In this document: positions 6,155 to 64,000 of the stretch, piece by piece
Numbering within the stretch: the stretch's first letter is position 1
Layout of the letters: every line of letters starts with the position of its first letter
From: Nitrospirota bacterium
GTDB lineage: Bacteria > Nitrospirota > Thermodesulfovibrionia > Thermodesulfovibrionales > Dissulfurispiraceae
Direction: 5' to 3'
Assembly (NCBI GenBank): GCA_040754455.1
Contig: JBFMCP010000003.1
Span: forward strand, 65,115 to 129,114
DNA: 64,000 nucleotides
Notes under the pieces: generated by a model
The model's input: only the letters and a program-made list of their open reading frames with translations
The model's database searches: none
Told to the model about the DNA's origin: nothing
Translations under genes and position numbers: made by a program

Positions 6155-6232
6155 CAAAGAGCAAAGAGCAAAGAGCAAAATTATGGGATAAAAAACTCCT
6201 TAATTTTTCATTTTGCATTTTTCATTTTGCAT
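6155..6232. repeat. heptamer-periodic inverted-repeat hairpin
   Basis: (CAAAGAG)x3 CAAAA ... TTTTTCA TTTTGCA TTTTTCA TTTTGCA. Confidence 0.75.
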
Positions 6233-6233
6233 T

Positions 6234-8788: not shown

Positions 8789-8872
8789 GAAATCCGAAAT
8801 CCTAAATTCGAAATTCTATGGTCATCTGCATTTTCGGTGCGTTTAGGCTTTAGTGCTTGGAATTTCGGGTTT
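8789..8872. repeat. heptamer-periodic inverted-repeat hairpin (GAAATYC type)
   Basis: GAAATCC GAAATCC TAAATTC GAAATTC ... GCTTTAG TGCTTGG AATTTCG GGTTT. Confidence 0.75.
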
Positions 8873-8877
8873 GCCTT

Positions 8878-10089: not shown

Positions 10090-10161
10090 ATGAGCACGAA
10101 ACTCTAAACAAAATTTTGTATTTTGAACATTCGAATTTGTTTAGAATTTCGGATTTAGGAT
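10090..10161. repeat. heptamer-periodic hairpin (GAAATYC type)
   Basis: GAGCAC GAAACTC TAAACAA ... TTGTTTA GAATTTC GGATTTA GGA. Confidence 0.7.
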
Positions 10162-10349
10162 TTTTTCCCCTCCAGGATGATTCTGTGTCGTAAAAGCGAT
10201 ATTTCTTTGATTTGACCTTCAAAGGTCTTCTGTTCACCGAACAGATTCTTGAGGTAAATTTTGTTGCCTTCCGGCACCATTACATCAACATTCTCCAGAT
10301 AGAGATCCTCTTTGCCGTCTTTCAGAATATAGGCATTTGCTTCACACAT
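10155..10349 (-). CDS. CooT family nickel-binding protein
   Basis: MCEANAY...ENVD...LKNLFGEQK..I..ISLL.H.IIL. Confidence 0.85.
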   Translation of the reverse strand: MCEANAYILKDGKEDLYLENVDVMVPEGNKIYLKNLFGEQKTFEGQIKEISLLRHRIILEGKKS

Positions 10350-10810: not shown

Positions 10811-10952
10811 AGCCATCAGCGCTCAACTGTCGGGTTTCCGACTCTCTGTTGGAGTGACGGAAACAAGCTCAAAACATGGCAGTGCGGAAGGAAGGGATTT
10901 TATTTGATACTTTTTTTGCTGATTGCTGGGGGCTGATGGCTGACCGCCGGCT
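10811..10952. repeat. heptamer-periodic hairpin (AGCNNTC/GCTGANN type)
   Basis: AGCCATC AGCGCTC AACTGTC ... GCTGATT GCTGGGG GCTGATG GCTGACC GCCGGCT. Confidence 0.7.
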
Positions 10953-10983
10953 CCTGTCCGTTGTCCCCGTGGTATAATTGCAG

Positions 10984-13590: not shown

Positions 13591-15132
13591 ATGATTAATT
13601 TCAAGATAACGAACGTCGGCGACGGTTTCCTTACCGTCGGCAAAGCCGATGGTCAGTCCGTACTGCTCAAGCCCGGTGAAACCGTGCGGGCGGAGGTCCT
13701 TGAGATACTGCCTGATGGAGGAGTGATTCTGAAGGTCAAGGGGAACCTGCTGACTGCGCGGACCGAAGTCCCCTTTGAGAAAGGCGCAACCGCTTTCTTC
13801 CGAGTAGCAGATACACAACAACCCGGAAAAGAGCTTAAACTGCAATTCGCAGGGTATGCAGAAATCTCTCCCCAAGACGCCCCCGCCAGGAGCTTCATGA
13901 ATACCCCTGAGGGGCAGGCATTAACCAGTCTCATCCATGAATTGTCCTCTGCAATCGCAAAGGATATCGAAAAAGCCCTTACGGGCGGTACCGGGAGGCA
14001 GGGCGCAGAAAATATCTCCGGAAGGCCGCTCTCGAGCAACCTCTCTCCCGACACACTGGAGCGCCTTATCAAAGCACTGCCTGCCGACATGACCGTATTG
14101 CCCAAAGAGGTAAAATTGCAACTCCAGGAGCTCTTGACCGCAAGTCTTAAAACAACAGGACAGAGTATCCAGACGAGGCTCGATACGCTCTTGCATCAGT
14201 TGCCCGAGGCGATCAAAAACTCACCCCTCATTACGGTCTTGAAAAATGAGCTGCTCGTCAATATGGAAAAGCTCCTCCCTGCGCCTTTGAAGACCGCCCT
14301 GCTGAATACCGGTGTCGCCTTCGAGGCAAAACTGAAGACAGTCGTGGCAACGCTGCAGCACCGGCAGACAGAAGAGGGCTTCGATCCAGCAGTAGTCCCC
14401 TCCCCGGACACCACCTTCGAGAAGGAGCTGACCTCAGCCCTCATAAAGGAGATCGTGAAACAGGCCAAGGAGTCCGCAGGCGAACTCCGCCCCGCACTGC
14501 CGTCCGACAGTACGGAGAAAGCACCTGCACCAAAGGGCGCCCTGTCTTCCGAATTCTCACCCCTCAAGAACGATCTGAAGGCTGCACTCCTTGAATTAAA
14601 ATATGCGCTGAACGACAAAGAGCTTATCGAAGCCCTCTCTTCAAAAGAAACCGCCCCGGCAAAGGATGCGAAGCAGGAACCCCACCTGCTGAAAACTGCT
14701 CAGGTAACCATAGAAGGACTTCTTAAAGATATCGAGACCTTTCAGGCGCTCTCAAGGACGACTGATTCCTTCTATACCTTTCTCCCGCTGAACTGGAAAG
14801 AGCTGCGGGACGGCGAGATCGCCTTCAAAGGGGGGAAACGTGATACCGGAGACACTGCGACCTTCTCCTGCAGGATTAATCTTGATCTCGAGCAGTACGG
14901 CACGCTTTCAGTGCTGGTGCTCATGCAGAACAGGGAGTTCTTCGTATCCTTCAAAGCCGATCAGCCGCAGTTGCAGGAGACCCTCTCTGCCCATCTCGAT
15001 AGCCTGAAAACGTCATTCAGAGAGAAAGGATTAACGCTCAAGGCGGCAAACATGCTGGACAGGAACGATACCTCTCTGGAACATCTCGAGAAGCTCGAGT
15101 CCTTTGAGCGCATCGTAAGCATCAAGGCATAG
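13591..15132 (+). CDS. FliK-like (flagellar hook-length control C-terminal domain) protein
   Basis: Long low-complexity helical body; C-terminal INLDLEQYG.L.V....F.ADQ..LQ..L..HLD.L..SF; adjacent to FlhB-C-like gene. Confidence 0.7.
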   Translation: MINFKITNVGDGFLTVGKADGQSVLLKPGETVRAEVLEILPDGGVILKVKGNLLTARTEVPFEKGATAFFRVADTQQPGKELKLQFAGYAEISPQDAPARSFMNTPEGQALTSLIHELSSAIAKDIEKALTGGTGRQGAENISGRPLSSNLSPDTLERLIKALPADMTVLPKEVKLQLQELLTASLKTTGQSIQTRLDTLLHQLPEAIKNSPLITVLKNELLVNMEKLLPAPLKTALLNTGVAFEAKLKTVVATLQHRQTEEGFDPAVVPSPDTTFEKELTSALIKEIVKQAKESAGELRPALPSDSTEKAPAPKGALSSEFSPLKNDLKAALLELKYALNDKELIEALSSKETAPAKDAKQEPHLLKTAQVTIEGLLKDIETFQALSRTTDSFYTFLPLNWKELRDGEIAFKGGKRDTGDTATFSCRINLDLEQYGTLSVLVLMQNREFFVSFKADQPQLQETLSAHLDSLKTSFREKGLTLKAANMLDRNDTSLEHLEKLESFERIVSIKA

Positions 15133-29405: not shown

Positions 29406-29419
29406 ATTATTTATACTAC

Positions 29420-29547
29420 CAAATTCCAAATTCAACATCTCAAACTATAAACACATTCAGGAATAAAGATGTTTTGCATTTTTAAGCATTCGAGCTTGTT
29501 TGGATTTTAGAATTTTGTGTTTGTTTGAGATTTGAGATTTGGAATTT
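29420..29547. repeat. heptamer-periodic hairpin (CAAATYY type)
   Basis: CAAATTC CAAATTC AACATCT CAAAC ... TTTGAGA TTTGAGA TTTGGAA TTT. Confidence 0.75.
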
Positions 29548-31266: not shown

Positions 31267-31668
31267 ATGAAACTCAACCGAAATAGGACGGTTCTCTCGG
31301 AGATCAATGTCACTCCGCTCGTCGACGTCATGCTCGTGCTGCTCATCATCTTCATGGTTACCGCGCCTCTGCTCCAGCAGGGCGTTGATGTGAATCTGCC
31401 CAAAGCAAAGGGCAAGGACCTGCCGCCGGAAGAGAGAGTCTCTATTGTGCTCAAAAAAGGCGGCTCGATCTTCATGAACGATACGCCCGTCACCATGGCG
31501 GAGCTGACGAAAAAGCTCTCGGCGATCAGCAAGCTCAACCCCAATGTCTTTCTCAAGGCGGACAAAGACGTCCCCTACGGGATGGTCGTAGAAGTAATGG
31601 GTGAAATTAAGGAGGCAGGCATTGAAAAGCTCGGCATGATCACCGAGCCGAAGATCGCACTGCCATGA
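31267..31668 (+). CDS. tolR: TolR
   Basis: EINVTPLVDVMLVLLIIFMVTAP, LKADK.VPYG. Confidence 0.93.
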   Translation: MKLNRNRTVLSEINVTPLVDVMLVLLIIFMVTAPLLQQGVDVNLPKAKGKDLPPEERVSIVLKKGGSIFMNDTPVTMAELTKKLSAISKLNPNVFLKADKDVPYGMVVEVMGEIKEAGIEKLGMITEPKIALP

Positions 31669-32378: not shown

Positions 32379-33694
32379 GAATCAGAATCCAGAATCCAGG
32401 AGTCAGAATTCAGAATGCAAGTAAAAGATATTTTGCTTTTTTATTTTTTCTTTTGGTTTTCATTCTGGCTTCTGACTCCTGGATTCTGGATTCTGCCTTT
32501 GCTAAGGTATATATCGACATCACGTCTCCTGGTCTCAGCAGGCTTCCTATCGCCGTCCAGAGCTTCAGCGACGGAAAGGAAATATCGGATATTGTAAGGG
32601 ATGATCTCACCTTCACCGGTCTTTTTGCCTGTATCGATGAGACTGCGCAGATCGAGCGGCCTGATCAGCCCTTTAGCCCTGCAAACTGGAGAGGGCTCGG
32701 TGCCGAGCTTGTGGTCAAAGGAAGGGTCACCTCTCCCCCGGGCAGAAAGACAATGACTGTTGTGGTTTCCGCCCATGACGTCACCTCAGGAAGTGAAGTC
32801 CTGAAAAAGGAATATTCCGCATCATCGGACCTCCTGAGACTGCTTGCACACTCCATAGCAAACGATATTTATACACTCCTTACCGCTCAGCAAGGGGTCT
32901 TCAAGACCAAGATCGCCTTTGTCGGCGAAAAGGGCGGCAAAAAAGAGCTCTACCTCATGGACTGGGACGGACACCGCTTGCGAGGATTGGGAGTCAACGG
33001 CGGCGTGTTGCTGACGCCGCGCTGGTCATCGGATGGTACAAGATTGCTCTATTCTGCCGAACGGCAGCGGCAGTGGGGATTCTATCTGCTCGATATGAAC
33101 ACGATGCGGGAGAGAAGTATTGCTTTTCTCAAGGGGCTCAATATGGCTGGAAACTTCTTCCCCGGCAACAGGGAATTTGTCTTTTCCTCATCGAAGGACG
33201 GTAATTCCGATATCTTCACAACGGACATAAACGGTGCGCATGATAGAAAGATCATTTCTTCTCCATGGATTGATGTATCGCCGGTGGTCTCGCAGGACGG
33301 CAGTTCCATAGCCTTTGTTTCCAACAGGTCAGGGAATCCTCATATCTATGTCGCGGACAAAGACGGCTATGGCGTGAGGAGATTGACCTTCGAGGGCACC
33401 TATAACACCTCTCCTGCATGGTCGCCTCTGGGCGACCGGATCGCCTTTGTTGGTCGCGCCGGAGGAAGGAACCACATTTTCATAATAAAAACCGATGGCT
33501 CGGCATTGACCCAGCTGACCCAGAAGGGCAATAACGAGGATCCTTCCTTCTCTCCCGATGGCAGATATCTCGTCTTTACTTCCGACAGAGATGGTTCAAA
33601 GGGGCTCTATATCATGAGGATCAATGGCGAAGGGGAGAGGCGTATCACACCGAAAGGACTCAAAGCCTCAAGCCCGAGTTGGTCACCCTACTAA
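32375..33694 (+). CDS. tolB: Tol-Pal beta-propeller protein TolB
   Basis: YIDI, PD40 repeats (P.WS.DG, SPAWSP.G, PSFSPDG). Confidence 0.93.
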   Translation: MRIRIQNPGVRIQNASKRYFAFLFFLLVFILASDSWILDSAFAKVYIDITSPGLSRLPIAVQSFSDGKEISDIVRDDLTFTGLFACIDETAQIERPDQPFSPANWRGLGAELVVKGRVTSPPGRKTMTVVVSAHDVTSGSEVLKKEYSASSDLLRLLAHSIANDIYTLLTAQQGVFKTKIAFVGEKGGKKELYLMDWDGHRLRGLGVNGGVLLTPRWSSDGTRLLYSAERQRQWGFYLLDMNTMRERSIAFLKGLNMAGNFFPGNREFVFSSSKDGNSDIFTTDINGAHDRKIISSPWIDVSPVVSQDGSSIAFVSNRSGNPHIYVADKDGYGVRRLTFEGTYNTSPAWSPLGDRIAFVGRAGGRNHIFIIKTDGSALTQLTQKGNNEDPSFSPDGRYLVFTSDRDGSKGLYIMRINGEGERRITPKGLKASSPSWSPY

Positions 33695-33733: not shown

Positions 33734-35551
33734 TTACATTTCTACCCTTGTAATAACGCCGTGCAGTTTATCCGGCGGGAGTTTATAGAACTGGACATAG
33801 GCAGGGGTCAATCGCTTGAAGATCGAGAAGAGTTTCCAGATAATGTTTCTGGTCGAGATATCCTCAAGCCCGTAGAATATAGCCTTTTCGTCAATGCCCG
33901 CCTCCTTGAGTATCTCCTCAATGTCCACCACTTCCATATAGCCGAGCTGTATCTCGAACGTGCGCAGGCCCTCGGCATAGCAGGCTTTGAAAAAGCCGGT
34001 AACGCCGAAAGGGTCGTCGCGCCTGATAATGGATACGACAATATTATCCTCGTATATAATGCCGTTATTGAACATGGTATTTACAATGTAGGGGGGAATC
34101 CACTGTATATCACGTGCGAAAAAGAGCGCAGTCCCTTTGATTTTACTCGCACCCTTATAAAGCTGATTGTATTTTTCCAGAAAGGTCGCGAGGTCCATAG
34201 GCCGAAGCGCGCGGTAGAGCCTCTTTTGTCCCCTGGTATAGATTATAATGATGCAGAAAGGAATGAGTGCGATGATAATTGACCAATAGCCACCGTGAGG
34301 GATCTTGTACATGTTTGAGGTGAGATAAGCGATATCGACAAACGTCACCAGCAGGGAGATGCCTGCCTTCACGAGGTGATTCCTCAAATAAAATATCCAG
34401 GTCATCATAATGCCGGTGAGCGTCATTGTCCCCGTGACCGCAAGTCCGTATGCTGCTGCAAGGCGATGCGACTCACGGAACTCAACCATGATAAACAGTA
34501 CCGAGATGAGCAGGAACCAGTTCACAAAGCCGATATAGATCTGTGACCTCAGCTCGGTGGAGGTGTAATCCACTTTGAAGAGCGGCATGATATGGGTAGT
34601 GATTGCCTGGTAAAAGATCGAGAACATGCCGCTGATCATCGCCTGGGAGGCGATCACCGTAGCAATAATGCTGAGGATAAGGAAAGGCACATAGAGGATT
34701 TGCGCCTCATGGAATATCATCTCGAAGAGAATATTCTTTGCGCCGGGGTGCAGGATGAGGAATGCTCCCTGGCCGAAATAGTTGATGACCAACGCAATGA
34801 AAACGAAATACCATGCCCTGATGATCGGCCAACGCCCGAGATGTCCCATGTCCGCATACAGTGCCTCGCCGCCGGTTGCACAAAGTATGACCTCAGAAAG
34901 TACAAAGAATCCCGCTATGCTGTTCTCTGCAAGGAAATTAACAGCATAGTAAGGATTCACAGCCCTGATCACCGAGGGGACCTGGAGTATTGAAACAATC
35001 CCCGAAATAAACAACGCCGAAAACCACACAATCATCATGGGCCCGAAGGCGCCGGCGACTTTCTCTGTTCCTTTACGCTGAATGGCAAAGAGGGCTATCG
35101 CAATAGCGCCCGCTACCAGGATGAGTGTTTCCTGTCCCGTCCTTTCAAAGCCGGGGATAAGCAGAACTCCCTCGACGGCACTGAGAATGCTTATGGCCGG
35201 GGTGATGACCCCATCGCCGACGAGCAGCGATATGCCGATAAAAGAGAGGAGCGTGACAAATGCCGCTTTCCTGCCCGACTTGAGCAGAGGCACCAATATC
35301 TCCTTGAGCACTATGGTGCCGCCCTCACCCTTCTTCCCGAGGCTCATGGCGAGCCAGGCATACTCAATGGAAACCAATATCATCATGGTCCAGAAGATAA
35401 GAGAAAGCACGCCGATAACATGCGCCTCGGTAGGCTTAAGGAGCAGGAAAACTACAGTGATGGTGTAGATGGGGCTGGTGCCTATATCGCCGAAGACAAG
35501 GCCCAACGATCGAATGATCCCCTTGATCGAGGACTCTTTCTCGAGTGTCAC
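33734..35551 (-). CDS. kup: KUP/HAK/KT potassium transporter (downstream copy)
   Basis: LGLVFGDIGTSPIY, GEGG, GDGVITPAISILSAVEG, TGGEALYADMGH, AAAYGLAV. Confidence 0.96.
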   Translation of the reverse strand: MTLEKESSIKGIIRSLGLVFGDIGTSPIYTITVVFLLLKPTEAHVIGVLSLIFWTMMILVSIEYAWLAMSLGKKGEGGTIVLKEILVPLLKSGRKAAFVTLLSFIGISLLVGDGVITPAISILSAVEGVLLIPGFERTGQETLILVAGAIAIALFAIQRKGTEKVAGAFGPMMIVWFSALFISGIVSILQVPSVIRAVNPYYAVNFLAENSIAGFFVLSEVILCATGGEALYADMGHLGRWPIIRAWYFVFIALVINYFGQGAFLILHPGAKNILFEMIFHEAQILYVPFLILSIIATVIASQAMISGMFSIFYQAITTHIMPLFKVDYTSTELRSQIYIGFVNWFLLISVLFIMVEFRESHRLAAAYGLAVTGTMTLTGIMMTWIFYLRNHLVKAGISLLVTFVDIAYLTSNMYKIPHGGYWSIIIALIPFCIIIIYTRGQKRLYRALRPMDLATFLEKYNQLYKGASKIKGTALFFARDIQWIPPYIVNTMFNNGIIYEDNIVVSIIRRDDPFGVTGFFKACYAEGLRTFEIQLGYMEVVDIEEILKEAGIDEKAIFYGLEDISTRNIIWKLFSIFKRLTPAYVQFYKLPPDKLHGVITRVEM

Positions 35552-35619: not shown

Positions 35620-35633
35620 CCTCATCTCTGACC

Positions 35634-35771
35634 TTTGCCCTTCCATATGCCTACGAGGTTAGCTGCCGGGCTCGGGCCTGGAAGTGCCCTATCCCCGAGA
35701 AAACCTCGGGGAATACGCCCCCTTGTCGTGGGTCCCCCGCATCCGCCTCTGGCGGATTTCGGCTGCAAACG
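35634..35771 (-). ncRNA. c-di-AMP (ydaO/yuaA) riboswitch
   Basis: Minus strand GCCGAAATCC..GCGGGGGACCCA..GGGGCGTAT..TAGGG..CCCGAGCCCGGCAGCTAACCTCGTAGGC; upstream of kup. Confidence 0.93.
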
Positions 35772-35784
35772 ACTATTTTGAAGT

Positions 35785-37870: not shown

Positions 37871-38389
37871 ATGAAGCTTACCCATTTCGATGATGAAGGA
37901 AAGGCGCGGATGGTCGATATCTCGGAAAAAGCCCCCACCTGTCGTGAAGCAGTAGTGACCGGCTCCGTTACAATGAAGCCGGAAACGCTTAAATTGATCA
38001 AGAAAGGACAGATCGCTAAGGGAGATGTCCTCGCGGTTGCGCGGATCGCGGGGATAATGGCTGCAAAGAGGACCCCTGATCTGATACCCCTTTGTCACCC
38101 CCTGAATATATCTTCGGTGACCATTGATTTCGACATCGACGAGAACGCCCATAAGGTCAATATTAAAACAACCGTAAAGATCACCGGTCAGACCGGCGTG
38201 GAGATGGAAGCACTTACCGCAACCTCTGTAGCGGCCCTTACTATTTATGATATGTGCAAAGCAGTTGATAAAGAAATGGTCATTTCCGATATCATGCTGC
38301 TCGAGAAACGCGGGGGAAAGAGCGGAATATTCAAAAGAGGACAGAATTCAGGAGCCAGGAGCCAGGAGCCAGGAGGCAAGAAGAAATAG
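37871..38389 (+). CDS. moaC: cyclic pyranopterin monophosphate synthase
   Basis: [47 protein letters not shown]. Confidence 0.97.
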
Positions 38390-38434
38390 TCTTTGTCTTT
38401 CTTCTGGATTCTGGATTCTGACCCCTGCCTTCTA
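38342..38434. repeat. heptamer-periodic hairpin (CAGRAKY type) between convergent genes
   Basis: CAGAATT (CAGGAGC)x3 CAGGAGG ... TTCTG GATTCTG GATTCTG ACCCCTG. Confidence 0.8.
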
Positions 38435-44458: not shown

Positions 44459-44543
44459 CAGGAATCCAGGAGTCAGGAGCCAGAACCCAGAATAAAGAAC
44501 TGCTCCTCTCTTCTGAATTCTGACTTCTGGATTCTGCATTCTA
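44459..44543. repeat. heptamer-periodic hairpin (CAGRAKY type)
   Basis: GGAATC CAGGAGT CAGGAGC CAGAACC CAGAAT ... TTCTGAA TTCTGAC TTCTGGA TTCTGCA TTCT. Confidence 0.8.
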
Positions 44544-58187: not shown

Positions 58188-58248
58188 CGGTCATTGATCG
58201 GTAGTCATAAGAAAAGACCGATGACCAACGACTGATGACCAATGACTA
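58188..58248. repeat. heptamer-periodic hairpin (TGACYRA type)
   Basis: GGTCATT GATCGGT AGTCAT ... TGACCAA CGACTGA TGACCAA TGACTAA. Confidence 0.65.
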
Positions 58249-60785: not shown

Positions 60786-62672
60786 ATGTTTAAAGAGCAA
60801 GACTACGAGGTAATTGTCATTGGCGCCGGCCATGCCGGCTGCGAGGCAGCGCTCGCTGCAGCGCGCCTCGGACTGCACACCTGTCTGTTTACCATCAATA
60901 TCGATACAATTGCGCATCTCTCCTGCAATCCCGCCATCGGCGGGCTCGCAAAGGGACACCTTGTGCGTGAAATCGATGCGCTCGGCGGCGAAATGGCAAA
61001 GGTAAGCGATAAATCGGGAATACAGTTCAGAATGCTCAACCTCTCCAAAGGCCCCGCAGTCTGGTCTTTGAGGGCCCAGGCCGACAGAGGGCTCTACAAG
61101 CTCCATATGAGGCAGGCGCTTGAGCAGCAGAGAGGCCTTACGATAAAGCAGGGGACTGTAGAAAAAATTGCAGTAGAAAACGGCAGGGTCACCGGTGTCC
61201 ATACCTCACTCGGTGTTTTCTATGGCGCAAAGGCAATTGTGGTGACAACCGGCACGTTTCTCAAGGGGCTTATTCACATCGGTCTCGAAAGTTTCCAGGC
61301 CGGGAGAGCGGGAGAATTTCCCTCCATCGGCCTTTCCGAATCATTGAGCTCCCTCGGGTTGAAACTGGGGAGACTCAAGACAGGCACCCCGCCGCGGCTC
61401 GATGCCAGAAGCATCGACTTTTCGAAGACGACTCCCCAGTGGGGAGACGATCCGCCCCCACCTTTTTCCTATTCGACAGAAAAGATCACCAATCCCCAGC
61501 TACCGTGCTACATCACCTATACGAATCAGAAAACCCACGAAATCATTAAAGGGAATCTCGACCGGTCCCCCCTCTACGGAGGGAAGATCAAGGGGGTCGG
61601 TCCGCGTTACTGTCCCTCAATAGAAGACAAGGTCGTGCGGTTCTCGGAAAAAGAGCGGCATCAGGTCTTTCTTGAGCCCGAGGGACTCGCGACTACGGAA
61701 TATTATGCGAACGGTATTTCGACGAGTCTCCCCTATGACGTGCAAATTAAGCTCGTCAGGAGCATCGAGGGACTTGAGCATGCCGAAATTATGAGGCCGG
61801 CGTATGCAATCGAATATGACTTTGTCTATCCGACACAGCTACGCCACAGTCTCGAAGTCAAAGGGATAGAGGGACTCTTCCTCGGAGGCCAGATCAACGG
61901 CACATCCGGCTACGAAGAAGCCGCTGCCCAGGGGTTAATGGCGGGAATCAATGCAGCGCTCAAGATCAAAAATCAGCCGCCGCTTGTCCTGGACCGTGAT
62001 GAGGCGTATATCGGGGTGCTTATTGACGACCTCGTCACCAAAGGCACCAAAGAGCCCTACCGTATGTTCACTTCCCGGGCAGAATACCGTCTGCTCCTCA
62101 GGCACGACAATGCTGACTTCAGACTCAGCGAGAAAGGATATCAGATCGGCCTCGTGACTGAAGAGGCCTTTGAGCGGTTTCATGCAAAGAAGAGCGCTAT
62201 GGAGAAAGAAATTTCCCGTCTCAGAAAGGAGCGGATCAAGCCCTCTGCCGAAATCAACGAAGCACTTACGGCTCTTGGCACCTCTGCGATCACCGAGGAT
62301 ACCGCTCTGGATAAGCTCTTAAAGAGACCGGAGGTCAAATATGCTCTCATCAAGCAATTCTCTTCATCGTCTGACCATTTGTCCGCCGAAGTCGAGTCGC
62401 TTGTCGAGATCAACGTAAAATACGAAGGGTATGTACGGAAGCAGGCGGAGCTCGCCGAGAGATCGAAAAAATTCGAGCACAAGAGGATACCGGCAGCGTT
62501 CAGTTACCAGTCGGTTCCCGGCTTATCGCGGGAGGTCATCGAAAAGCTGAAGGAAGTTGAGCCTGAGACTGTCGGACAGGCGAGCAGGATTCCCGGCATC
62601 ACCCCGGCTGCCATATCAATACTCCTTGTCGCAGTGGAGCGCTATTGGAGACAGTCCAGAAACTCCTCATAG
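60786..62672 (+). CDS. mnmG: tRNA uridine-5-carboxymethylaminomethyl(34) synthesis enzyme MnmG
   Basis: GAGHAGCEAA, SCNPAIGG, RLKTGTPPR, GPRYCPSIEDK, GQINGTSGYEEAAAQG. Confidence 0.99.
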   Translation: MFKEQDYEVIVIGAGHAGCEAALAAARLGLHTCLFTINIDTIAHLSCNPAIGGLAKGHLVREIDALGGEMAKVSDKSGIQFRMLNLSKGPAVWSLRAQADRGLYKLHMRQALEQQRGLTIKQGTVEKIAVENGRVTGVHTSLGVFYGAKAIVVTTGTFLKGLIHIGLESFQAGRAGEFPSIGLSESLSSLGLKLGRLKTGTPPRLDARSIDFSKTTPQWGDDPPPPFSYSTEKITNPQLPCYITYTNQKTHEIIKGNLDRSPLYGGKIKGVGPRYCPSIEDKVVRFSEKERHQVFLEPEGLATTEYYANGISTSLPYDVQIKLVRSIEGLEHAEIMRPAYAIEYDFVYPTQLRHSLEVKGIEGLFLGGQINGTSGYEEAAAQGLMAGINAALKIKNQPPLVLDRDEAYIGVLIDDLVTKGTKEPYRMFTSRAEYRLLLRHDNADFRLSEKGYQIGLVTEEAFERFHAKKSAMEKEISRLRKERIKPSAEINEALTALGTSAITEDTALDKLLKRPEVKYALIKQFSSSSDHLSAEVESLVEINVKYEGYVRKQAELAERSKKFEHKRIPAAFSYQSVPGLSREVIEKLKEVEPETVGQASRIPGITPAAISILLVAVERYWRQSRNSS

Positions 62673-63271
62673 AAGGGCTCCGGGAATTAGGGCTGGAGAC
62701 CTCGGATATCCTTGTTTCCAAGTTTATTACCTACCTGAAGGAACTCAAGAAGTGGAACCGGGCCTATAATCTTACTGCCCTCAAAGAGGACAGAGAGATC
62801 GTCATCAAACATTTCCTGGACTCCCTTCTTTATCTTAAGGCTATTCCGGAAGGAGCGTGGAACATCTGTGATGTCGGCAGCGGCGCTGGCTTTCCCGGTG
62901 TGCCCCTCGCCCTTGTCAGACCGGACCTCAGCTTCACACTTGTAGAGCCCTCCCGAAAGAAGACCGCCTTTCTTAGAAATATAAAACGCGTCCTCTCTCT
63001 TAATAATGTGGACGTGCTCGAAGCAAGAATAGAGGATGTGCGGGAAAAGAAATTCGATATTGCTGTGACGCGGGCTCTCTTCAGCATTGGAGACTTTATT
63101 AAGAATGCCGGACATGCTGTTAAAACGAGAGGCCTTTTCATAATGAATAAAGGGCCGAAGTTCGAAGAAGAAATCAAGGGAGCCCCTGCCTCTACCCACA
63201 TCGAGGTGCTGCAAGCTGCTCTGCCTCAATCCGGGATACAAAGAAGCATAGTGAAAATAGTAAGATCCTAA
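62645..63271 (+). CDS. rsmG: 16S rRNA m7G527 methyltransferase RsmG
   Basis: KWN..YNLT, HFLDSL, DVGSGAGFPG, TRA; follows mnmG. Confidence 0.96.
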   Translation: METVQKLLIEGLRELGLETSDILVSKFITYLKELKKWNRAYNLTALKEDREIVIKHFLDSLLYLKAIPEGAWNICDVGSGAGFPGVPLALVRPDLSFTLVEPSRKKTAFLRNIKRVLSLNNVDVLEARIEDVREKKFDIAVTRALFSIGDFIKNAGHAVKTRGLFIMNKGPKFEEEIKGAPASTHIEVLQAALPQSGIQRSIVKIVRS

Positions 63272-63429
63272 TACAGCGCTAAAGAAGGTCCTCTTTGCCT
63301 TAAATTGCGCATTAAAATATAAGACTTTGATTTTTAATATTTTAAGTGACTACGAATCCGAACCCCTCATAGTGCTCAGCTTGCTTTTTATTTTTATAAG
63401 CCATTGTCTTTTTTTGTAAATTTTACTTG

Positions 63430-63458
63430 TTGACATATCAATAAAGTTTTGCTATTAT
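63430..63458 (+). promoter_or_regulatory. rrn P1-like promoter
   Basis: AT-rich UP region, TTGACA-17nt-TATTAT, boxA-like GCTCTTTGA at 63471. Confidence 0.75.
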
Positions 63459-63577
63459 AACAATTCACTCGCTCTTTGATTTATTTAGTACATAATCCTC
63501 GCACAGGGGAGCTCAAAAGAGCAGGGCTTATCCAGCGGTTCGTTAATTTTTGTTTAATTCCAAAAGATTGCGTCGTG

Positions 63578-63606
63578 TTGACTTGTCTAACCACTTTTGT
63601 TATTAT
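63578..63606 (+). promoter_or_regulatory. rrn P2-like promoter
   Basis: TTGACT-17nt-TATTAT, boxA-like GTTCTTTGA at 63618. Confidence 0.7.
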
Positions 63607-63650
63607 TGATTAAAGGCGTTCTTTGAGTTGTAAACTTGATTTATGTAAAT

Positions 63651-63821
63651 TCTCTGCAGTGCCTGTTGGTTCTAGCGAACTGAGGGAACATCAAGAGAAC
63701 GGGAGTAGGAGTTGATGTGGTGATGCAAGCCCCGGCAAGGCGCGGGGTAGCCTAAACATCAACCGAAGCACCCACTTAGATTGAAGCCTCTGTAAGTTCG
63801 GAATCAACGGCGCTGTGGGGA
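63651..63821 (+). ncRNA. ssrS: 6S RNA (SsrS)-like structure
   Basis: 171-nt rod with a 13-bp terminal stem (including G-U pairs), central bubble, GGGAG (63701), GCACCCAC (63768) and 3' AACGGCGC, as in Bacillus-type 6S RNAs. Confidence 0.72.
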
Positions 63822-63884
63822 TTTTTGTTCTTTGAAAACTAAAGGTAGATTTTGCCAAAGCTTTGTGAGAGTTTTCAGGAAAAG

Positions 63885-64000
63885 ACATTTGAGAGTTTGA
63901 TCCTGGCTCAGAACGAACGCTGGCGGCGTGCTTAACACATGCAAGTCGGACGGAGTTAGACGGCAGCACTCAGCAGTTAGCATTCAGCGATCAGCAAAGA
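63885..64000 (+). rRNA. rrs: 16S rRNA, 5' end (truncated by window)
   Basis: AGAGTTTGATCCTGGCTCAGAACGAACGCTGGCGGCGTGCTTAACACATGCAAGTCG. Confidence 0.98.

Follow-up and report, generated by a model that had tools for sequence, protein, structure and literature searches.

The window, i.e., the whole 64,000-nucleotide stretch of DNA that was analysed, ends inside a 16S rRNA gene, and the question raised by this locus is what has become of the tip of helix 6 (the V1 “spur” hairpin), where a tandem array of heptamers is read up to the last bases of the sequence. The gene begins at about position 63,885; its first ~110 bases lie inside the window, and its 3′ part is cut by the window end. The assignment to 16S rRNA, which had been proposed in a first-pass annotation of this DNA, was upheld by an Rfam search, in which 63885–64000 matched positions 1–111 of the bacterial SSU model, with the match cut at its 3′ end, an E-value of 2.6e-12, and 47.0 bits, slightly below the gathering score of 50. 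Infernal placed the 16S tail on this model with low posterior probabilities only. In an alignment of nine 16S 5′ ends, consisting of the window and eight related loci, the columns up to GTCG.ACGG were near-invariant. The locus is the true 16S start of a Thermodesulfovibrionia-like Nitrospirota bacterium, and the following features were mapped in and ahead of it:

63430..63458 (+), promoter-like site 1 of the rRNA operon (TTGACA, 17 nt, TATTAT), with 11 of 12 hexamer matches and TG ahead of the second hexamer
63578..63606 (+), promoter-like site 2 (TTGACT, 17 nt, TATTAT), with 10 of 12 hexamer matches
63648..63825 (+), 6S-RNA-like, rod-shaped structured RNA in the rRNA leader (RF00013, 47.5 bits; gathering threshold 46.4)
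63826..63839 (+), boxA-like leader motif TGTTCTTTGAAAAC, invariant in the window and in the relatives L004, L005, and L007
63885..64000 (+), 5′ end of the 16S rRNA gene, cut by the window end (Rfam SSU model 1–111; alignment)
63945..63963 (+), 5′ basal strand of helix 6 (GTCGGACGGAGTTAGACGG), resembling the basal strand of relatives with a normal V1
63964..63998 (+), CAG-phased array of five heptamers, taken as the putative 5′ strand of a lengthened helix 6 (sequence, TRF, pattern match, and shuffles)
63965..63973 (+), 9-mer AGCACTCAG, one mismatch from AGCACTGAG, common to four aberrant V1s

Upstream of the 16S gene, mnmG (60786–62672) and rsmG (62645–63271) are followed by the two promoter-like sites, both of them strong, and the conserved leader. 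Relatives were drawn from 80 loci recovered by an MnmG scan (L001–L080), among which L001–L045 are nearly all Nitrospirota and L046–L080 belong to other phyla. The second-best protein match of the window MnmG showed 82% identity, behind one 100% match that NCBI assigns to a Nitrospirota MAG. The mnmG–rsmG–16S order was also found in L001, L003, L004, L005, L007, L008, and L022; in L009, the 16S gene lies on the other side. The boxA-like motif at 63826..63839 belongs to a part of the leader that was also matched in L001, L003, L006, L008, L009, and L022. The 6S-like RNA lies 3′ of both promoter-like sites and immediately 5′ of the boxA-like motif, and a 6S gene co-transcribed with rRNA would be an unusual arrangement. 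The element is 73% identical in L004, L005, and L007, and of its 59 predicted pairs, 7 have changed on both sides; an Rfam scan of seven relatives' loci gave no 6S match at the gathering score.

The window ends 106 nt past GTTTGATC. The contigs of L001, L003, L004, L005, L007, and L022, all of them short-read assemblies, end 79–121 nt past the same sequence, and since these relatives (6/6) stop so early in the same 16S gene, whether their V1 is normal or aberrant, position 64000 is very probably the end of the source contig. An exact 23-mer spanning the junction of 16S and insert gave no match in the searched genome contigs. Genome bins of this clade often retain no rRNA sequence other than the initial ~100 nt of the 16S gene, V1 included.

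In helix 6, GCAAGTCGGACGG ends at 63953, AGTTAGACGG comes next, and five 7-nt units follow. Read in the CAG phase, the units are CAGCACT, CAGCAGT, TAGCATT, CAGCGAT, and CAGCAAA, so that four of the five open with CAG and one with TAG, and two bases are left after 63998. The first-pass annotation had phased the same units on AGC (63965–63999), one base later, and its letters and coordinates for all five were found to be correct when the sequence was re-read. The segment 63964–63994 matches CAGNNNN ×4 in two registers with one mismatch, and the array was reported by TRF as 63964–63996, with a period of 14 and a score of 38. The period is not due to chance. Within 63954–64000, matches at a lag of seven numbered 24 of 40, a level reached by none of 200,000 shuffles, and the same level at any lag from 3 to 14 was reached by five of 200,000; a trinucleotide at five phases of seven was seen in one of 200,000.

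Helix 6 of this 16S gene is over-long. From the helix-opening GTC, the sequence runs for 56 nt (63945–64000) without turning back, which is about the length of an entire normal helix. A search of 63800–64000 for inverted repeats found none, and thus no closing strand lies within the window, as had been remarked at first reading. A 33-amino-acid open frame across the insert (63901–63999) gave no match among protein representatives.

The normal form of the helix was defined from the relatives with a complete V1 (L003, L004, L008, and L009) or a partial one (L007). Their consensus fold consists of 21 pairs, five of which show compensatory changes, and the variable part spans 34 alignment columns with a GCAA loop inside GTAGCAATAC, in keeping with the figure of about 30 nt that had been quoted earlier for the normal helix-6 insert. 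When aligned with these sequences, the window keeps the basal strand and then diverges at the position of the apical GTAGCAATAC, which places the insert site within the 16S gene, at the top of helix 6. In Rfam scans of six and seven loci, complete 16S genes of normal length were found only in L008 and L009, and lowering the threshold did not bring out any period-7 array in the rRNA operon of L008. L008 is a long-read relative; its 16S–23S spacer (14221–14306) is 84 nt long and gave no tRNA match in Rfam at the gathering score; the 23S gene spans 3029 nt, compared with 2925 for the model, and may carry an insert of its own.

Among the nine 16S 5′ ends, four have an aberrant V1 at the same spot, namely the window, L001, L005, and L022 (three of the eight relatives). 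All four are at contig ends, and none of them shows a second arm, the 3′ side of helix 6, or the remainder of the gene. Allowing one mismatch, AGCACTGAG was found in every one of them (4/4), starting 19–20 nt after the G of GTCG. Across the 1.25 Mb of loci, the background rate of this pattern is ~6e-5 per base per strand, and in the window as a whole it occurs at chance level (14 matches versus 13.5 expected). Past the 9-mer, all four sequences differ: CAG heptamers follow it in the window and in L022, and no heptamer array follows it in L001 and L005. The 9-mer itself contains two triplets that are 7 nt apart, CAG and then CAG or GAG, and would thus be a natural seed for slippage.

The distribution of the aberrant form was followed on an MnmG tree of 17 rows (the window, L001–L012, L015, L022, L032, and L036), the rest of the 80 loci being left out. 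L005, with an aberrant V1, was sister to L004 and L007, with normal ones (support 100/99), and L001, also aberrant, was sister to the normal L003 (100/100). The window was placed beside L008, L006, and L009 with weak support (81/70); V1 is normal in L008 and L009, and the L006 locus is without a 16S gene. L005, L004, and L007 have almost the same leader, while their V1s differ completely. Taken together, the distribution on the tree, the near-identical leaders, and the shared 9-mer indicate that the aberrant V1 is a labile trait of sporadic occurrence and is homologous at its start.

Arrays with a period of seven were also abundant in the rest of the window. Period-7 tandem runs numbered seven, compared with a mean of 0.05 in 20 shuffles, and in the same scan a single run was seen at period 8, with periods 4–6 and 9–12 giving none. 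Sixteen of the 33 TRF rows had a period of 7, and five more a period of 14. CAG and CTG were the leading phased trinucleotides at period 7, with 10 each; the totals at periods 5, 6, and 8–11 were 0 to 6. CAGNNNN ×4, with up to one mismatch, was matched 22 times versus 0.34 expected, a number that none of 100 shuffles reached, and the matches fall in five places (10919–10956, 32383–32495, 38335–38434, 44467–44543, and the 16S tail). These counts agree with the initial suggestion that the 16S array is of the same kind as the periodic hairpins of this genome. The 16S array lies in an rRNA gene and is not intergenic; the other CAG arrays lie between ORFs. The four intergenic CAG-array places are hairpins of the form 5′-(CAGNNNN)n-loop-(NNNNCTG)n-3′, and they belong to a wider set:

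6155–6233, 8789–8874, 10811–10956, 29419–29547, 32383–32495, 38335–38434, and 44462–44543, intergenic hairpins in which both arms are tandem heptamer arrays

A repeat search detected complementary arms for five of the seven intergenic regions tested, and the other two pair through G:U in RNAfold. In the best hairpin, two 38-nt arms (32383–32420 and 32458–32495) are 92% complementary, and the order of the variant units within 32383–32495 is mirrored between the arms. Every hairpin locus has its own units, and window hairpins other than the CAG-phased ones are built of CAAAGAG, GAAATCC, and CCAAATT. The hairpins sit between co-directional, convergent, or divergent genes. The G:U pairs had been considered as a sign of an RNA-level role, and this idea was dropped because the window hairpins fold about equally on both strands, whatever the gene direction, and show no link to it.

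With up to two mismatches, AGCNNTCAGCNNTCAGC was matched nine times in the window versus 2.07 expected, and none of 100 shuffles reached nine; four of these matches are in the 16S tail, four in 10811–10948, and one at 31514. The first-pass claim that the AGCNNTC unit of the hairpin at 10811–10952 recurs in the 16S gene is partly borne out by these matches. The longest word that the 16S tail shares with the rest of the window is 11 nt. No transposase or other mobility gene was found beside the examined arrays, the neighbours of which encode HD-domain, DUF401, lipoate ligase, TonB, MoaC, and AMMECR1 proteins. The arrays at 8789–8816 and 10128–10165 were considered as the two ends of a mobile cassette and rejected as such, as the gene that they enclose encodes an ordinary HD-domain protein and 8789–8816 has a local partner arm of its own.

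Several further observations were made on repeats and structured RNAs in the window. At 38342–38389 (+), the MoaC ORF (37871–38389) enters the array for ~16 codons, and the C-terminal tail of the protein is thus encoded by the repeat; of the 172 residues, the Pfam MoaC match extends to residue 149. At 58216–58247, an array of GACCAAT and GACTGAT units, without a partner arm, is flanked by a family 2 glycosyltransferase gene and a gene for a lysylphosphatidylglycerol synthase TM region (PF03706); its unit resembles a cyanobacterial heptanucleotide repeat. A c-di-AMP riboswitch (RF00379, 84.8 bits) lies at 35633–35774 (−), upstream of a Kup-type potassium transporter gene (33734–35551), a common and expected combination of riboswitch and gene.

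In the comparison set, period-7 arrays were present at 12 loci of L001–L045 and at two of L046–L080. Exact CAGNNNN ×4 occurred in six of the 80 loci, all of them Nitrospirota, with one occurrence inside the V1 of L022. When four distinct array loci of the relatives were folded, a clear partner arm was seen in one (L040); L002, L032, and the locus of L004, L005, and L007 were without one.

The best explanation, to which we assign a probability of about one half, is that the locus carries an insert at the tip of helix 6, i.e., an intervening sequence or an expansion segment, in which a heptamer repeat has expanded in place. According to this mechanism, the tip of the helix would have been replaced by a longer insert, of a type that opens with the conserved 9-mer and, like rRNA intervening sequences and expansion segments, has a sporadic distribution in related genomes. 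In a lineage that is strongly prone to forming CAG-phased heptamer arrays, the repeat would then have grown in place from the 9-mer, presumably by slippage. Expansion in place is favoured because the tail shares at most 11 nt with sequence elsewhere and because the 9-mer is also present in the V1 of relatives that have no array.

By analogy with the intergenic elements, the array is probably the 5′ arm of a hairpin. Every complete hairpin in the window has the form 5′-(CAGNNNN)n-loop-(NNNNCTG)n-3′, which makes a complementary arm past 64000 a fair prediction; since L040 is the only one of the four folded relative loci with a clear partner, the second arm is likely rather than certain. The remainder of the predicted structure, namely the mirror-image arm, the 3′ strand at the base of helix 6, and the conserved GGCGGACGGGTGAG block, would be located past the contig end, and the resulting insert would be roughly 80–150 nt long. 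Long, near-perfect RNA duplexes are substrates of RNase III, and cleavage would be expected if the insert forms a duplex like that of the 38-nt arms at 32383–32495. Such a duplex in the 16S insert would probably be cut out, and the mature rRNA may lack it.

A bolder version of in-place expansion is put forward tentatively, as a speculation that is more apt to fail than to hold. Here, the spur tip in Thermodesulfovibrionia-like Nitrospirota would house an exchangeable V1 cassette that is marked by the 9-mer, turns over between sister genomes, and seeds CAG-phased hairpins. The length of a 16S helix would then slip in the manner of a contingency locus, by a process, undescribed so far, that would also shape many of the intergenic hairpins.

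Two alternatives are considered unlikely. According to the first, the last 40–50 nt are an assembly artefact, i.e., a chimeric or erroneous contig tip that came, for example, from the 16S gene of a co-occurring relative. That the array occupies the last 37 nt of the window, and that six short-read contigs of relatives stop in the same part of the gene, would fit an artefact, as would the scatter of the aberrant V1s on the tree, since sporadic artefacts would be scattered too; contigs that end within heptamer repeat regions are also noted in the available part of PMC4679880. However, four assemblies with different record names share the 9-mer at one offset, with a background of ~6e-5 per base, and the basal strand ahead of it is typical of the clade. 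Furthermore, CAG-phased heptamers are native to the Nitrospirota genomes compared, and the search for a shared k-mer by which a misjoin could have arisen gave none.

According to the second, and with an equally low probability, the tail belongs to the left edge of an insertion of far greater size, such as an intron, an insertion sequence (with or without a homing endonuclease), or other foreign DNA, or else this 16S copy is a disrupted pseudogene. The missing closure is what would be seen at the edge of such an insertion, the tail of L005 enters two more small hairpins that are unrelated to 16S, and kilobase-scale inserts at the tops of rRNA stem-loops are documented for CPR bacteria in the part of PMC11270868 that was accessible. 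This reading is countered by the promoter-like sites, the conserved leader, and the perfect 5′ domain of 16S, all of which are intact, and the sequences after the 9-mer differ in the four genomes, unlike the ends of one mobile family. No intron family was found by Rfam at E-values up to 1 in 63300–64000, where the 47 nt available from the insert are too little for an intron test.

That a ready-made periodic hairpin element was moved or copied into the 16S gene as a unit, as the first-pass annotation had it when it wrote of an element that “entered” 16S, is now very doubtful. The unit type is indeed the same as in the hairpin at 10811–10956, and the window contains several loci of this family. 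Against it, the tail and the rest of the window share no word above 11 nt, every window hairpin has units of its own, and the examined arrays have no mobility gene beside them. The array, moreover, grows from a 9-mer that is also carried by relatives without arrays (L001 and L005), and on these grounds entry fits less well than expansion in place.

It is likewise very improbable that the array remains single-stranded, lacks a partner arm, and serves on the surface of the spur as a series of binding sites for a protein or RNA, since the CAG-phased arrays of the window are all paired with partner arms and nucleases would have access to any long stretch of rRNA insert left unpaired, despite the three of four distinct heptamer loci that folded without a partner arm in the relatives.

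Published 16S inserts are known from helix 6. Insertional heterogeneity of 16S genes is described for Desulfitobacterium dichloroeliminans, Desulfallas, Thermoanaerobacterium, and Thermoanaerobacter in the accessible text of PMC7812874, in which inserts that are retained are termed expansion segments and those that are excised, intervening sequences. The insert described here resembles the known rRNA intervening sequences and expansion segments (16S V1/helix 6; 23S helices 25/45) in that it is placed at the tip of a surface stem-loop, occurs sporadically, and leaves the rRNA core untouched. It differs from the published ones in that its interior is a tandem heptamer array and its host a member of the Nitrospirota, and it is known here from its 5′ part alone. 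No description of a heptamer array inside an rRNA insert was found in the literature searched. According to the portion of PMC11270868 available, 1.1% of non-CPR 16S genes have insertions, with the inserts at the tops of stem-loops, and the rRNA insertions and introns of CPR bacteria are similarly located at stem-loop tops or bases and scattered across the host phylogeny. The CPR insertions are mostly group I/II introns or endonuclease-bearing, at other named sites, whereas nothing of this sort is detectable in the 47 nt of the insert that the window contains.

Intergenic heptameric repeats are known from several other bacteria, including GGGAATC in Xanthomonas, GGGGA(T/C)T in Nostoc, TAACTGA in Beggiatoaceae and cyanobacteria, the heptanucleotides of Calothrix, and those of Bacteroidetes, and slippage of the polymerase has been proposed as their cause (PMC4692102 and PMC4679880, in the sections at hand). 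As described there, they share with the present arrays the period of seven, heterogeneous units with few fixed positions, mostly two to six units, an intergenic location, high variability between close relatives with rapid change, and, in some cases, inverted repeats that form stem-loops. The TAACTGA direct repeats were proposed as regulator binding sites in the part of PMC4679880 consulted, which lends the idea of a single-stranded platform some support. In the window, by contrast, the fixed positions are CAG, most arrays are paired hairpins, and one lies in an rRNA gene. Nitrospirota are not mentioned in the accessible sections of these two papers, and the string “nitrospir” has 0 occurrences in those of PMC4679880.

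Supplements aside, the literature searched yielded no report of either heptamer hairpins or 16S inserts from Nitrospirota. The combination of an insert at the tip of an rRNA helix with a heptamer repeat is new; each of the two kinds is already known. The compared genomes are strongly prone to CAG-phased heptamer hairpins between genes, of which no printed description was found. A real and complete insert would place a tandem-repeat hairpin in a helix of ribosomal RNA, and it would also represent a sporadic V1 variant in poorly known, sulfur-cycling Nitrospirota. Such inserts lengthen and diversify V1 and would disturb V1-based primers, probes, and amplicon length filters, and they may add to the loss of 16S genes from the genome bins of this clade.
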